Positions 29,424-38,051 of a stretch of DNA of 64,000 nt are shown piece after piece. The translations under genes were made by a program, and so were the position numbers. This stretch comes from Octopus vulgaris (taxonomy: Eukaryota). Under the pieces are notes generated by a model. That model made no database searches. It saw only the letters and a list, made by a program, of their open reading frames with translations, and was not told where the DNA came from. The stretch's first letter is position 1. Each line of letters opens with the position of its first letter. The DNA is taken from positions 16,058,001 through 16,122,000 of the forward strand of contig OX597826.1 of the NCBI GenBank assembly GCA_951406725.2. The letters run 5' to 3'.

Positions 29424-31730
29424 ATGTTTCTTTATTAGCCACACAGGGCTGCACACAGATAGAACAAATTACAAGGTAGAGCTTTTCTTTTGAAGGTTTA
29501 AAAAAAAAAAAAAAAAGGAAGGGGGAGTTTCGATCAAAAGGGATCGTAAAAGGAGAGAAAGAGGACAAAAAAAAGGAGGGTTAAAAAAAAGGGGGAGAGG
29601 GAAAAAAAAATTGATCAATAGGGATCGTTATCACAGAAATGTCAATATGAAGTGTAAAGGGGAGGACAGGTGAGGTTTACCCGTGGAAAGAAAAGCCTAC
29701 GGAAAAGACCACGGTAACCTCGGTCAATGGGGTCACATGTTATATTTCTTTTTTTTTTTTTTTTTGCAAATAAGCAACTCTCTGTTTTCAATTTTTGGGT
29801 TCATAGGATCATGCTCAAGGTGGCTTCGTCATTCATACGTGCCATTCTTGCTACATTCACCCATCTTTTTTTAAAACATTCGCTAGACAAAACTTGCCTC
29901 TCTACTCTCACTTTCCTTTTCAAGTGGTACTTGAAGAAGTTGATGAGAGATTGACCAGAGAGGAAAGTGTTTGTCTCCAATCCTTTCAGACGCGTCCACC
30001 AGATACATTCTTTCGCCATAGCCACAAGGATGATGAAAATAGCTCTTCCTTCCCGTTTGAAGGAGGGAGGCGTGACAATATTAACGATAGACTCAGCTGA
30101 TAAACCGACTCGTCCCACACGTGACAGCAGTTGTTCGACACAAGCCCACAGGTCGGAAATTGTTGGACACTGCACGAGTGCGTGCAGAACGGTTTCGTCG
30201 CTCTGACCGCATCTCGGGCAGGTCGGCCCCGTGTTTCTCGAGCCGTGTCTGTAGAGCTTATCCCGAACGGGTAGCGCTTCTCGGTAGCACTGCCAGGCCA
30301 GGGATCTCTGGAAGTTGTCCATGGGCCCTGGCCCGAAAGTCGTCCTGAACAGGCGGTTCAGGTACTCCTCGTCGACGTCCAGGTTCGCCCCGAGCTCCTC
30401 GTCGTACCTCCCCTCCACTAAACCCCTATAGAATGCTTTGGTTGTGTTGAAGTCACTCAAGGTCGACCCAGGACGGCAGAGTTGCTTGAGAGCAACGCGA
30501 CACTCGCGGTGCCACTCGCCCTTCTTCGGCCTCTTTTTGATCCACGACTGCAGTTCGGTCATGGAGACGAGCTGCGGGAAAGCGTGCCTCACAAACGGCG
30601 ACCACACCTGTTCACCGTCGTCTACGTAGAGCCAGAGATGTTGCAGTCTCAGCGCGTGTCTGCGCATCATCAACCACGGCATGCCCAGCCCTCATTTTAA
30701 CGGGTGTTGACAGCAAATGGATCGTCTGACCATCGGGACGCATCCTTTCCACAAGAAGCGAAAGAGAATGCGTTGTAGTTTGATGATGGTAGGCTCGGGA
30801 CAAGGTACGACGGGCAGGCGGTAGTAGATGACGGACGCGATGTACGTGTTCGCCACCTCCGCCCGACCTTTTAGGGACAGTTTCCTCTCGGCCCATTGCC
30901 GGGCGAGAGTGACCACCCTACTCGTTATCTCGTTCCAGTTCTTCTCCACTTGGAGGTCCGGACCAAACCAGACCCCGAGCAACTCAACCGGGCCGTCGGT
31001 CCAGCGTCCCACGACGGAGGCGCTGGTGGACGGTATGGGCTTGCTTCTCCAGGTGCCTAGTCGCAAGCCCACTGACTTTTCCCGGTTGATTTTCGCTCCT
31101 GTCACCGCTTCGTAGTTTTTCAGTGTCTCGCCGACCTGCTCGATGTGCTCGTGGCTAGACACTATGACGGTGACGTCGTCCGCGTATGCAGACACGCTCG
31201 TCCCGCATCCCAGTTCTCGCGGGATGCCTCTCAAGGTTGCCAGCTTCCGCAATAATGGCTCGAGAGTCAATACGTATAGAAGCGACGAGAGGGGGCATCC
31301 CTGACGGACCGAACGTGCGATGTCGAAGGGTCTCGATAGATGTCCATTCACGCGAATTACCGAACGGATACCTCCGCGGAAGACGGGACCGAAGCCACCC
31401 GCTCCGAGGACCGCCTCTAAGTATCGATGGTCCACCCTATCGAAAGCTTTCGATTGATCCAAATTGATCAGCGCCCCACCCATGCCAGGTTCGTTAACTA
31501 CCCTGTCTATGATGTAGCGCATCAGGTGGAGGTTGTCATGGATGGTCCGGCCTGGCACGGCGCATGTTTGCGCCCTGTCGACCAGTTTCTCGATGACAAG
31601 CGCCAACCTCTTGGCTAGCACCTTGGCCAAAATTTCCAAGTCTGCATTAAGCAGAGTGATGGGCCTAAAGTTATCTATTACATTTCCCTTGTTTAGATCT
31701 TTCTTCAGCAGTGTTACGGCTCCTCGGCTC
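29424..31730 (-). mobile_element. 5'-truncated L1/Tx1-clade LINE (ORF2 RT and CCHC)
   Basis: NFRPITLLNAD, LDQSKAFDRVDH, SVRQGCPLS, AYADD and CPRCGQSDETVLHALVQC. Frameshift at ~30690; 3' UTR with AATAAA; (GATA)n on both sides; GC-rich. Confidence 0.92.
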
Positions 31731-31748
31731 ATAGATAGATAGATAGAT

Positions 31749-31795
<47 letters not shown>

Positions 31796-31860
31796 GAGAT
31801 AGATAGATAGATAGATAGACAGATAGATGGATAGATAGATAGGTAGGTAGATAGATAGAT
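31731..31860. repeat. (GATA)n microsatellite
   Basis: Read directly from the sequence. Confidence 0.95.
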
Positions 31861-33217
31861 ATTATATCCAAACAGCCAGCCATATAGTTATGAAACATGT
31901 TCAACTAGATGATATTTAGATAGATAAAATATCCTTTTTCCTCTTACATTATTTTTTACCTAGCTCCTAATCATTATTTAAATTAACATATTTTCGTAAT
32001 TGGAAGCCATTTTAATGACATTTCTGTTTTATTCATTACGACTCCAGTATATTATGCTGACGCTTAAAGAAAGCACTATTGTCACACTGTTACAGCTATC
32101 TTGACATGTAATAGTGTTACGTTGGTATGCTTTGCATCGCTTCTGCATAGTGACTCCTTTGTTCCCTTGAGCATGGTGGCTATCAGCTATTCTATGACAA
32201 TAACATCAAGGGAGTAGATATATAATATTCCTGACATGATAGAAATTACTCATTGAAAACTGATGCGCCACAAATGGATATGCTGAATCAATAATAGCGC
32301 ATAGCTTTTATTGATACAGATCCAAACAAGGATATGGCCACTTGGAATGGAAACAATATAAGAGCCTTAGATCTATGTGTCTTAATGAAAGTAAAATATC
32401 ACTGTGAGGAAAATTAAACAATGCTGAGTTTACAGACTACTTTCATTTCTCAGATGAATACAGTTCTTTTCATAACGAAACCCACTACTATAGATTTATA
32501 CAATAGATACCAATGTTCCATGTGTTGTGTTTCACGAAAATATATCTGGCATTTTAACATCCCAAGTAAAACAATATGCAATATTAATAAGTTGCGTGCA
32601 CTGTATTGTAACATTATGACGTGCTATGCGTGAAACAAAAGATAGTACGTAAAAAGTAATATTGAAAGCATGCCCAGATGAATTAGTCTATCACTTTCGA
32701 CACACTCATCTCTAAATGTTATTTCAAATCCTTTCAAATTAATTCTTGAACTGGAAATTAAGAGTGTATGCAAGGTTTATGACTTTTCAAGTGTGCACTG
32801 TACGTCAATGCAAAGTTTATGATAGTTACAGCTTAAGTCCCAATCACTTCGTGATCTTATAAACAAATTGTAAATTGTGTACATATTTTGGTAGTGATAC
32901 TCCGTTTCTCAATGTTATTATGTATTTCTACAACACTGTACAAAGGCAATGTTATGCAAATTCTGGGCAAAGTTATGAAATACGAATGTGTGGAGTGATT
33001 TCACTGAGTACAGAAAACTTCATTCAGAAGAAATAAAATCAAAATTCCAATTTGTACTTTTACATTGTGAACTGATTGCATTCCAGTCCCAGTATATTAG
33101 AACAATAGTATTGCATTGTACAAACATTCATACACAACCACGCATTCACATACATCGCTATCTACCTACCGACATATATTCGTACATACATAAATATATA
33201 CATACATACATGCATAA

Positions 33218-33266
<49 letters not shown>

Positions 33267-33554
33267 TAAGAAAGAGAAGAAAATGGAGAAATTGACATTT
33301 AGACATCAAATTATTCAAAGATATTCAAATTAATATATGGATTTTTATCCCTAAAGCCGTCGATTCAATTATAGAAATAAAGTTAAATTAAACTACTTTG
33401 AAATTTTCATATCGAAACTCGTTAATTGGCTATTTCATCTGGGAGTAATTTATTCTAACGTGTTGATCGAGCCCTTCACGAACTCTGATGTCAGTGTTTT
33501 GGCAATATATGTATTTAAAAAACCATTATAAGTATGTATATATATATATATATA

Positions 33555-33949
33555 CTAACAGTATCGCCCGGCGTTGCTCGGGTTTGTAAGGGAAATAATT
33601 ATATAAGCATTTTTAGAGATGTAAAGTATAATAGCCATCTCAATATGGCTAACCACAAAGGGGGAGGGGTGTTACTGTAGCTTTTTACGTTCTGAGATTT
33701 AATAATAAATTTTAGAGAGTTACTTCCCTTATATATGTCAAAAATGGATTAAAAATGGGAAAAATTGATGGTAATTTTTTTTTTTAATCGTAGACTCATC
33801 GTAGACGCGCGCTAATACCCAGACGGTCTCGATATGAATCACGACTATAAGATACCCGGTTTTGGTTAAACTGCACCGCAAAATGTGGGAGTAGTTAGGA
33901 ATCTAAATCGTAGGAGGCAGACACACAACCTCACTTTTATATATAAAGA
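33555..33949 (-). mobile_element. Non-autonomous Helitron
   Basis: 5' TCTTTATATATAAAA, 3' hairpin CCCGAGCAACGCCGGG followed by TTAG (a CTAG variant), inserted between A and T. Confidence 0.75.
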
Positions 33950-34111
33950 TTTCCTCTATTTACATAATATTGAGGTCTCTTTCTTTCTTTTGTTATCTTA
34001 CTGTTTTTACCAATATACATATATATATATATATAAATATATATATAGTTACAGAGATGTACTTGCATAGCAAGTGACTTGATCTGAGATCGTGTGCTGG
34101 AACGAAAACAG

Positions 34112-34370
34112 TTGCAGCGTTGAAGGTGTTTATAAGCCATTTAAGAAACACACAAAAACCGTTAGATTCACTTCAACATTTAAATTAAATTTGTCAAAAT
34201 ATTTTCGTCGCTTTGAGACCGCGACCTGTTAGCACGATATTTTTGTCAGTGAACAGGTCGCGGTCTCAAAGCGACGAAAATATTTTGGCAAATTAAATTT
34301 AAATATTGAAGTGAATCTAACGGTTTTTGTGTGTTTCTTAAATGGCTTACAAACACCTTCCACGCTGCAA
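34112..34370. repeat. 119-bp-arm inverted repeat with a 21-nt spacer, inside TA microsatellites
   Basis: 34112-34230 pairs with 34252-34370 with few mismatches. Confidence 0.92.
34242..34292 (+). ncRNA. Minimal hammerhead ribozyme candidate with a G3-C8 swapped core
   Basis: TTTGTCA-GTGAACA-G-GTCGC-GGTCTCAAA-GCGAC-GAAA-ATAT-TT-TGGCAAA. Confidence 0.65.
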
Positions 34371-34385
34371 TATATATATACACAC

Positions 34386-34429
<44 letters not shown>

Positions 34430-34686
34430 GTGTATATGTGTATGCATGTATGTGTGTGTGTGTGCGTGTCTGTGCTTGTGATTGTCTTCCACCACTGCTT
34501 GACAACGAATGTTGGTTTGTTTACATCCCTGTCACCTAGTGGTTTGACAAAGGAAACAGATAGAATAAGTACAATGCTTACAAAAATAAAACTGGAGTTG
34601 ATTCATTAAACTACAATTCTTCAAGGCATTGCCCCAGCATGGCCACAGAGCAATGGCTGGAAAAAGCAGAAGAATAAAAGAATTGA

Positions 34687-34872
34687 GGGGGACCTCTACA
34701 TGGTAGCTAGACCTGGTAGAAATAGCAGCAAAATTTCCCCCAAATCACACCTTACTGTCTTATCTATGTATATATGTATGTATGAGCCTATGAGGGAGAC
34801 CCCTACATGGCAGCTAGACATGGTAGAAATAGCAGCCAAATCTCCCTCAAATCACACCTTACTGTCTTATCT
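34687..34872 (+). repeat. Two diverged ~80-bp direct repeats
   Basis: ..ACATGG.AGCTAGAC.TGGTAGAAATAGCAGC..CAAATCACACCTTACTGTCTTATCT occurs twice; a related reverse copy lies at ~39040-39100. Confidence 0.7.
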
Positions 34873-35745
34873 TTCTGCTACTTGGATATAGGTGTTATAT
34901 TCGTCTAAAAAACTTTCCTGTCACACACTCACGCACACGCACACACACACACACACACACACGCACCGTCACACGCACACACACGCGCACGTACACACAC
35001 ACACACGCACGTTAGCTTACAATTTTATTTATATATTTGCGTGTGTATGTGTGGAAAGAGGAAGTGGGAGGCAGAGTGAAAGAATCACTCACCACAGTAA
35101 GTGAATTAGTTTCATTTTATTCGTTGCCCACTGTGTGTGTGCGTTTGCGTGTGGTATAAACCAGACTAAGAAAAGCATTTGACACACACACCAGAATGTG
35201 AGTTTTCTGTAAATTTTGCTTAATTGGAGTTTAAATTTTAAAAACTGGACCTGGCATGACGCGATGCATTGTACTCTTAAAAATGCCAGGTAAATTGTAA
35301 TTGAAGAAATCCTATATTGTAGATTTGTATAACTCCCAAAGGGAGGCAGATAAAATCTGCCTTTTATAATAAGAGATATATATATATATTACCATTAAAT
35401 ATATTATAAATATTATAAATATGTATTCTTGAGAATGTATTAATTATATATTAAAGCTACTAGTATTTTCAACCGCTCGGTATTTCATGTTTAATACACT
35501 GACATCTATAACTATATAAATAATTAAGAATTCTTGGCAGGTATCATATAAATATTAAATATAATATTAAAATATTAATATTGTAATATTAATAGTTGAT
35601 GTTGTATACGAGGAAAAGGACTAATTTCTCATGTATTAACGCATGTTTATGGACGTTGAAAAATCGATCATCTGATATATTGTTATTATTATCATCATCA
35701 TCTTCATCATCATCATCATCACCCTCCTCCTCCTCATCATCATCA

Positions 35746-35816
<71 letters not shown>

Positions 35817-36348
35817 CGTTTGACTATTGTAACTCCTTTGTGGAAAATTCTTTTTGGTATAATACTCAATTAGCCAATTTCAATATGAATAATTTGAATT
35901 TATTTAATTTAATTTCACTAAGTGAATCAATTGGATATGGAAATATGGAAACGGCTGTAGGAAGAGGAATTGCATGTCACATGGATTTGAATATCTTGAA
36001 AAACCTGATGCCTATATGTCAATTTCTCCACTTTCTTTTTATTATTCATAAATATTTTAAATACCCATATCGATCAAGGCAAGACCCACGTATTTAGTTT
36101 TTTAACTGAACACTGGTATAAACTGGAGAACTAGAATGCAAACATCTCTTAAAGGATTATATGCACTTGGCATGATTATATATACACATACGTATGTATA
36201 CATATATATGTATATATATATATATATTGTTATATTTCGGAATGGTCATATTACCAGTTTAGCCAATAAAAAATCTTGCACAACAAATATTTAAACGTAT
36301 ATATATATATATATACATATATATGTATATTACATACATATACATATA

Positions 36349-36450
<102 letters not shown>

Positions 36451-37047
36451 TATGTATATATAGATTTGCATATATATATATATATATTCAGGAAACTTTG
36501 CTTATATGTTACACTAGCATCCACTTGAATAATAGGCTAATTGAATTTCCATGGAGATCTATAATGTGCTCCCCAAACGTGTTGGTAGAATTATATGATA
36601 AAATGAGATGGTTGCAAAAAGTGAGGGAAGGGTAGTAACAGAGAGAGGGTGGCTTATATTAGTGAAGGCAATGGGATATTAACGTTACTACATCTGTCGT
36701 ATACACGCGACGTTGCATAAATACTTTCGTAAATACATAGATATAACACACACACAAAAGCACACGCACACACAAAGGGGGTATGAGGAATATGTAAGTT
36801 TAAGGAGAGGGGAGGTAGGTGGTTTTCTGCTGTCAATCGCAAAGAGGCACTCACACACAGATACATCAACACACACATACAGACATACATCCATATATAT
36901 ACATACATACATGCATACATACATATGCCTAATATTCACCATTTTAAACTCCTGATTACCTCCGTGTATGTTTGTAAATGTGTGTGCGTGTGTATATGTG
37001 TGCGTGTGTGAGTGCATGCGGGTAGGTGTGTGTGTGTTTGTGTGTGT

Positions 37048-37097
<50 letters not shown>

Positions 37098-37659
37098 CGT
37101 CTTAGAACTCTCTGTCTCTAGTTTTGTAGGGCCTTCCCTGTTGCCGTCAGATATTGTGAGAATTTCAAATTGCTTCAAAATTTCCAAATTTGATACATTG
37201 AAATAATTTTCCATGTTAAATCCGATTGTGTTATTTATTTGTTCCAGAAAAGCTGCAGAAAATTTTACTGAGATTTAAATTGTAGTCAGTTTTATTTCAT
37301 CAGCAAACAAGATTTGGAAGGTGGCATTTACTGCATGATATGAAATGAAAGCAAAATCATTAGGTTCAGGAATTTCTATTAAACAAACGGAAGCAAAGCA
37401 TTATGACGACCAAAGTTGTAAAATCTTCTGAAGTTTTGATCAAAAATGTTATGCGGAACCGTCAAACAGACCAGTAAATTATTTTAAAAGGCCCAAAAAT
37501 CTTCAGCGCTGAAGTTTGACGAGAAATTGCGCAAATCTGTCCTGATTAAGAGGCCTATCTGACGGGGAATACATACGCTGACAAGAAATAAATAAACATG
37601 TATATAAGACATCGTATTGTAAAAAATTATCGTCAACGACGGGCTATTTGGCTAGTATG

Positions 37660-37696
<37 letters not shown>

Positions 37697-38051
37697 TTAT
37701 TTCGGTCAGAGTTCTTTCGTCACACTCCTGTGAACGCATCAGTGGTCCTTTGTTTTCTTCTTTCTTATTTGTGTCTCTCTTTACTAACCGTCAGCCATTT
37801 TGTATTTTTATTGTATTTCTTCATTTGCGCATGCTTATATCTCTATGTACGTCTATGTTTATTTAGTGTGTGTGTGTGGGGGGGTGCCTGCAATATTTGT
37901 ATCTTCTGTTTATATACATTCATGTAATTTTTTGTTGTTGTTGCTGTTTTTGTTTATTCGTATTTTGTTTATGTGTTTACATCCACTTATTATTATTATT
38001 ATTATTATTATTATGTATGCTTGTATGTATGTAAGTATAACAACACTACTA

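Follow-up and report, generated by a model that had tools for sequence, protein, structure and literature searches.

A Penelope-like element of Octopus vulgaris carries a family-wide hammerhead motif with G3-C8 in place of the C3-G8 pair

Introduction

A stretch of 64,000 nucleotides of the Octopus vulgaris genome (assembly GCA_951406725.2, contig OX597826.1, forward-strand positions 16,058,001 to 16,122,000; the whole stretch is referred to below as the window) contains a small fold-back, one arm of which resembles a type I hammerhead ribozyme with the core GUGAACA instead of CUGANGA. The two departures fall on positions 3 and 8, which form a tertiary Watson-Crick pair. This raises the question of whether the double change is a compensatory swap maintained by a family of sequences or an accident of one copy, and of what kind of element has spread it. 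A preliminary description, made from the letters of the window, favoured selection on the pair and a non-autonomous, retrozyme-like family.

Hammerheads with low, dimer-dependent activity have been described in the pLTRs of Penelope-like elements (PLEs), where U3-A8 was reported as a natural covariation of the 3-8 pair (Cervera and de la Pena, 2014; PMC4209133). In the anole PLE Poseidon, two internal reverse transcriptase (RT) starts yield a one-sided tail, the template used is mainly unprocessed RNA, and the hammerhead requires the protein; an engineered C3G/G8C double mutant partly restores cleavage (Frangieh et al., 2024; PMC11167929). As far as the portions of the sources that we drew on extend, PMC3088659 gives U3-A8 as the only natural variant, PMC3884650 mentions G3-C8 as a tested variant, and neither PMC6765202 nor PMC13282606 adds a G3-C8 case, the latter making no mention of hammerheads or ribozymes in that portion. 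Our literature search, an incomplete one to which specialist papers on variants could add, did not turn up a naturally occurring hammerhead with G3-C8. In the literature surveyed, G3-C8 is thus known as an engineered rescue mutant, and natural covariation at the pair is reported as U3-A8 only.

Results

The motif occupies 34242..34292 of the window on the plus strand, with a predicted cut after U17 at 34285. Stem I joins 34242-34248 to 34286-34292 (TTTGTCA and TGGCAAA), the core GTGAACA lies at 34249-34255 (G3 at 34249, C8 at 34254, A9 at 34255), and stem II pairs 34257-34261 with 34271-34275 (GTCGC and GCGAC), followed by GAAA at 34276-34279 and the palindromic AATATT at 34279-34284. The type I topology first proposed for this sequence stands, every element being found where it had been placed and the fold being borne out by covariation among relatives (below), with the addition of an extra G at 34256, directly after A9, that the initial account had passed over. 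Compared with the consensus core (C3 U4 G5 A6 N7 G8 A9 / G12 A13 A14 / A15 U16 H17), the motif has G3 and C8 instead; the remaining core positions (U4, G5, A6, A9, G12-A15 and U16.1) agree with the consensus given in PMC3088659. Two of the 11 conserved core positions therefore differ from the published consensus, exactly the paired 3 and 8, and by our own arithmetic the chance of both differences landing on paired, complementary positions is about 1/55 x 1/3. U17 gives the cleavage triplet UUU.

Folded alone, the window motif forms stems I and II (MFE -13.9 kcal/mol, z -2.27, a value equalled by 4 of 200 shuffles), and stem III, which has 2 bp, is not formed in this predicted fold (P=0.0); the palindrome duplex is worth only -0.2 kcal/mol. 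A co-fold of two copies gave no dimeric ribozyme, to which we attach little weight since nearest-neighbour folding ignores the core. Adopting the hammerhead fold within the window fold-back costs 66.4 kcal/mol relative to the long hairpin, against 5.8 kcal/mol in a solo unit or in the autonomous pLTR described below. Even at an E threshold of 10, no Rfam hammerhead family matched 30000-38000 or 34232-34330, in keeping with the earlier expectation that searches based on CUGANGA would miss the motif. Because a loose descriptor of the core alone yields 0.145 matches per shuffled 64-kb window, a single copy is weak evidence, and it is the family, together with its relatives, that makes the case for a hammerhead.

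The fold-back itself is an inverted repeat of 34112-34230 and 34252-34370, with 119-nt arms that are 96% complementary (5 mismatches) and spaced by 21 nt. Its arms are two unequal pLTR copies. The main arm, at 34049..34230 on the minus strand (unit positions 31-212), is 5'-truncated within the hammerhead core, where it begins at A6, and runs to an outer 3' end; this left arm consequently lacks the 5' strand of stem I and G3-U4-G5. The inverted arm, at 34231..34370 on the plus strand (unit positions 11-150), has a near-complete 5' end, holds the entire motif and halts at an inner 3' end. The stretch of about 60 nt by which the outer 3' end extends past the inner one, at 34049..34111 on the minus strand, is present on one arm only and constitutes a PLE 'tail'. 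A 31-codon open frame at 34048..34140 on the minus strand starts with ATG, continues through the tail and is likely to represent the N-terminus of the PLE ORF: the ORF of a sister family (below) begins at the equivalent place within its own pLTR, and the two N-termini show a weak similarity (9/25 identical, E 0.009 in a single comparison).

Other repeats lie near the fold-back. Pieces of the sister pLTR are found in the window at 37692-37788 (minus strand) and 36224-36310, one being a C3-G8 motif with C9 and the other a short head-to-head pair. An unrelated, truncated, GC-rich ORF at 29801-31732 on the minus strand, split between frames of 346 and 293 aa, was read by eye as a LINE-type reverse transcriptase.

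The surroundings of the window copy turned out to belong to a larger repeat. In the 30 sequences that match the right arm best, of which the window copy is one, similarity continues far past the (TA)n runs and spans about 33554 to 35377. Median identities for four segments within this span are 97.8-98.8%, each segment being present in 28 or 29 of the other 29 copies, none of which matches the sequence flanking the span. Helitrons start with TC, end with a hairpin followed by CTRR or CTAG, and insert between A and T. The 1.8-kb composite at 33555..35376 on the minus strand starts with TC after an A at 35377 and has a hairpin at 33567-33582 and a terminal TTAG before a T at 33554. TC after A is found in 19 of 26 matched copies on the minus strand, and a GC-rich hairpin followed by CTAG and T in 28 of 29. 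By these end motifs the carrier is likely a Helitron, a non-autonomous one with the fold-back as cargo. A shorter Helitron-like unit at 33555..33949 on the minus strand, recognised from its end motifs, would supply the 3' end and has its own TC-type start at 33949. The boundaries first drawn for a small element must accordingly be revised: the fold-back is real, but its ends are internal to the likely Helitron, and the (TA)n runs that had been compared with PLE ends are internal as well; all 29 other best-matching copies share the sequence on either side as far as 33555 and 35376. Since the window copy was multiplied as cargo, the carrier copies, which account for 9 of the 71 distinct loci examined below, are uninformative on selection for the motif; an unrelated carrier of this kind can inflate the copy counts of a motif. 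Also within the carrier are a presumably SINE-like fragment at 34460-34680 and, at 34684/34791, a direct repeat of 82 nt that varies in number among carrier copies.

A scan of the genome (2.8 Gb, 227 contigs) with one loose pattern, split three ways, gave 6253 matches, which count arms and not loci: 5732 G3-C8 (92%), 345 with G3 and another base at position 8, and 176 without G3. When 8 core letters were left free, a second pattern had 1497 exact matches, and among the first 100 listed 84 were GTGAACAG and none was CTGANGA. GTGAACA is thus the family consensus, and the predicted Watson-Crick pairing of positions 3 and 8 and of the stems holds for the family. Subfamilies vary in loop II (9-nt and 8-nt forms, a 1-nt indel) with core and stems constant, and a subfamily change from A to G in stem I keeps a U-G pair.

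To describe locus architecture we fetched 90 loci in chromosome order from three pattern searches, and removal of duplicates left 71 distinct ones. Head-to-head pairs make up 43 (9 in the Helitron, 34 independent), solo copies 28 and direct tandems none; at L305 two copies in direct orientation, 4.3 kb from each other, enclose an ORF. A truncated inverted copy had been put forward as a PLE trait, and the independent pairs bear this out: 31 of 34 combine one arm that reaches the outer 3' end with one that stops about 60 nt earlier, and the same two 3' ends occur as loose ends in runs under other species labels. At the 5' side, 54 of 98 arms from independent loci begin within the first 10 unit positions. 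This fixed 5' end, reached by most arms, lies about 20 nt upstream of stem I and precedes the cleavage site by about 60 nt. Only 1 of the 98 starts exactly at the predicted cut, in a set that is biased to long 5' ends because two of the three locus sets demanded an intact motif in one arm; no 5'-end pile-up was seen at the cut site in the less biased match lists either.

Among arms that start at AG-ATGCAGC and lack the sequence upstream of it, 20 of 28 are preceded by a G where the long copies have C. We infer that this G is a copied cap at a start site within the pLTR; the alternative is an intron acceptor at that place. A branch-point-like, pyrimidine-rich stretch upstream of the unit (L250-L279) ends in AG exactly where the short copies start, and could be either a splice acceptor or an initiator.

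The source of the unit was found in the same genome. The unit extends upstream in 422 copies, and tracing such copies led across a (TACA)n-rich stretch to the C-terminal end of an ORF. Searching at the protein level yielded 134 matches; the family's longest open frame (1025 aa, locus L300) has a GIY-YIG domain (PF01541) at residues 915-1005 (25.4 bits against a cut-off of 22.6) and RT motifs read by eye, with no RVT_1 Pfam match at E 0.1. Of 22 distinct ORF ends examined, 19 are followed by the pLTR 962-1108 nt downstream, all 19 with GTGAACAG; of the other three, two are without downstream DNA and one is disrupted. The unit of about 205 nt is therefore the pLTR of an autonomous Penelope-like element with RT and GIY-YIG domains. 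A single RT and GIY-YIG ORF, a downstream pLTR with a hammerhead, an inverted 5'-truncated copy and a tail together place the element among the EN+ PLEs with a C-terminal endonuclease. The linker before the L300 endonuclease is short (C-x3-CxxC-x7-C), like the CX2-5CxxC linker of the Nematis clade, with which we compared it by eye (Craig et al., 2021; PMC8557442, rows of Fig. S2), and unlike the long linker of Neptune/Naiad in the same source; the C-terminal GIY-YIG, the inverted 5'-truncated copy and the tail are also described there for Nematis PLEs. By motif resemblance the octopus PLE probably belongs to this clade. No copy joining the pLTR to the ORF at the 5' end was found.

Two other candidates for an autonomous or tandem source were rejected. 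The dominant 781-aa GIY-YIG family has no DNA in common with the unit and a different, U3-A8 motif, and a 3.4-kb triplication on contig C2 contains no ORF. The 781-aa PLE (L077-L099, L105) has a long Neptune-like linker and many intact frames and terminates in its own hammerhead motif, with a U3-A8 core and a palindromic stem III; two further small U3-A8 motifs were noted at L109 and L113.

The discovery of this parent bears directly on the retrozyme-like, non-autonomous family proposed at the outset, which would spread through self-cleaved monomers and circular RNA. The length of the unit and its type I motif fit metazoan retrozymes (PMC7229834), short copies far outnumber those linked to an ORF (422 upstream-extended copies against 6253 motif matches, from different patterns), and an origin of retrozymes from pLTRs has been proposed (bioRxiv 10.64898/2026.07.22.740005). 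However, none of the 71 loci is a direct tandem, the boundaries of the unit do not fall at the cut site, the unit matches the 3' repeat of the autonomous element at 91-96%, and no tail-to-head joint was present among the joints listed in contigs of 8 sequencing runs. We consider this account very improbable: an autonomous PLE parent, the lack of tandems among these loci and 5' ends upstream of the cut do not support it.

Whether G3-C8 is a compensatory change can be judged from the relatives. The hammerhead frame is shared by a sister PLE, whose 1312-aa protein is 54% identical to the family ORF across 814 aa, and by three more related repeats; these four pLTR families among the fetched loci all have C3, and three also G8, in a gap-free alignment of the core. 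Covariation was scored on an alignment of 9 rows (4 of them from this family, 5 from relatives), of which four pair positions 3 and 8 as G-C, four as C-G, and one leaves them unpaired. Eight of 15 pairs changed on both sides, a number attained in 0 of 500 shuffles and compared with at most 3 in slid controls; the shuffle result is not a probability, as the 9 sequences are related and kinship inflates covariation. The claim that both paired positions changed together is upheld, the change being compensatory with respect to C3-G8 relatives in the same frame. Canonical CTGANGA occurs in two rows, L237 and L269, each a single copy damaged elsewhere. The sister family has C9 in all covering copies except one that is rearranged, and another related family has A8-C9, from which it appears that the clade tolerates non-canonical cores.

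These comparisons also tell against reading the window sequence as a MITE-like DNA fold-back that inserted into (TA)n and resembles a hammerhead by chance. Such an element would have the long terminal inverted repeat and the TA runs on both sides that are seen in the window, and the shuffled-window rate given above shows that a loose core can arise fortuitously. Arm lengths, however, vary from locus to locus, 28 of the 71 loci are solo, the unit is tied to a PLE ORF, and it covaries with C3-G8 relatives. This reading is largely refuted, and we hold it to be the least probable of those considered.

Within the family, several origins of the variant copies were ruled out. There is no C3-G8 subfamily among the first 100 of the 176 non-G3 matches, 12 of which have C3 and none G8; a lone C3-G8 copy (L037), retrieved with a pattern demanding CTGANGA, has a G3-C8 core in its other arm and was treated as sporadic. 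G8 is found in 39 of the first 100 listed matches with G3 and a base other than C at position 8, about 2% of all copies. Such G3-G8 copies (e.g. L180-L219) occur on every subfamily background, some on both arms, which excludes an ancestral subfamily. Mutation bias in an ACA context is likewise excluded, C>G changes numbering 4/890 at ACA and 13/2997 at other non-CpG C (105 arms), both below the approximately 2% at C8. A copy with a broken 3-8 pair may thus still be copied.

In contigs from 8 runs, which carry 5 different species labels, 97-99% of the depth at position 8 is C, and the swap is therefore older than those species. Among these contigs, A>G and T>C changes are much more frequent in those of RNA type than in DNA-type runs with the matching species label (L064:1420-1525; X2/X16 and X13/X19), in a comparison where the RNA label was guessed, individuals differ and copies are pooled. 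At position 1461 of L064 the values are 15.5% against 0.26% and 9.6% against 0.03% (RNA type against DNA type), and at position 1478 one pair gives 14.0% against 0.06% and the second 2.3% against 0.5%. This suggests that fold-back RNA is edited A-to-I on both strands.

Discussion

We consider it reasonably probable that the window fold-back is a head-to-head insertion of a PLE pLTR, later carried as Helitron cargo, and that its family has a compensatory G3-C8 type I hammerhead whose cleavage is predicted to be slow and to depend on dimers or on protein. According to a model of how such copies would form, a capped short RNA starts inside the pLTR and, uncleaved, would be reverse-transcribed by the family's own protein at AT-rich insertion sites, with RT starting at either of two internal sites to give the tail and the inverted arm. 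In source elements selection would keep the hammerhead fold, which may process tandem or read-through transcripts. The U17/UUU triplet and the 2-bp stem III point to low ribozyme activity. The window copy is an ordinary passenger and probably never adopts the catalytic fold: its 119-bp hairpin would preclude that fold and turn its RNA into a substrate for editing instead.

The same pLTR could instead retain the hammerhead fold as a non-cleaving structure that serves protein binding, promoter function or RNA stability. The weak cleavage site and stem III just mentioned would be expected of such a structure, as would the uncleaved state of integrated copies, the C9 and A8-C9 cores of the sister families and the approximately 2% of G3-G8 copies; insertion of the anole PLE in vitro is unaffected by hammerhead mutants (PMC11167929), and functions beyond self-cleavage are allowed for in PMC4209133. 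Against this, the 3-8 pair forms solely in the active conformation (PMC3884650), and since pairing needs that conformation, the preservation of the pair through a double transversion is best explained by the active conformation. U4, G5, A6, A9, G12-A15 and U16.1 are moreover all retained, and in a PLE hammerhead the C3G/G8C change does recover part of the cleavage (PMC11167929). We regard a purely structural role as the less probable reading, and prefer a hammerhead that would act as a slow ribozyme.

We put forward more tentatively, at somewhat short of even chances, that a naturally active G3-C8 hammerhead was fixed in a PLE lineage across related species, alongside C3-G8 and U3-A8 hammerheads, with capped pLTR RNAs and edited fold-backs. 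If so, one genome would hold, side by side, three of the four possible Watson-Crick versions of this tertiary pair, and thousands of hammerheads would be invisible to CUGANGA descriptors and to Rfam. Censuses of hammerheads, and claims of PLE families without them, can overlook whole families in this way. A family of thousands with close C3-G8 sisters also provides natural wild-type and control constructs for asking whether, and why, PLE hammerheads cleave.

Several known systems resemble parts of what is seen here. The carrier of the window copy, though not the PLE family, is like non-autonomous Helitrons in its captured internal fragments and in a second, internal 5' end. Metazoan non-LTR retrozymes (Cervera and de la Pena, 2020; PMC7229834) are likewise short, AT-rich and type I, with non-coding copies moved by a partner RT, and the octopus family differs from them in having no tandems among the 71 loci, boundaries that are not set by the cut and an autonomous parent. 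The hammerheads of PMC4209133 are closer: they too are of type I and lie in the pLTR, with an extra base between positions 9 and 10.1, G10.1-C11.1 and a short palindromic stem III, and most copies are dispersed, some on opposite strands, as in the octopus. The octopus motif is distinguished from these by G3-C8 and U17, where they have C3-G8 or U3-A8 at the pair, and by a stem I of 7 bp and a stem II of 5 bp, compared with stems of 4-5 and 7-8 there.

The anole Poseidon element (PMC11167929) shares with the octopus PLE a hammerhead in the pLTR, an ORF start within the repeat, a one-sided tail, AT-rich targets and the insertion of uncleaved RNA. The tail is about 60 nt in the octopus and 30-40 bp in Poseidon, and the octopus element is unlike Poseidon in that its ATG lies downstream of the motif and its endonuclease has a zinc-finger-like linker. 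The G3-C8 pair that was engineered in Poseidon is the natural state of the octopus family.
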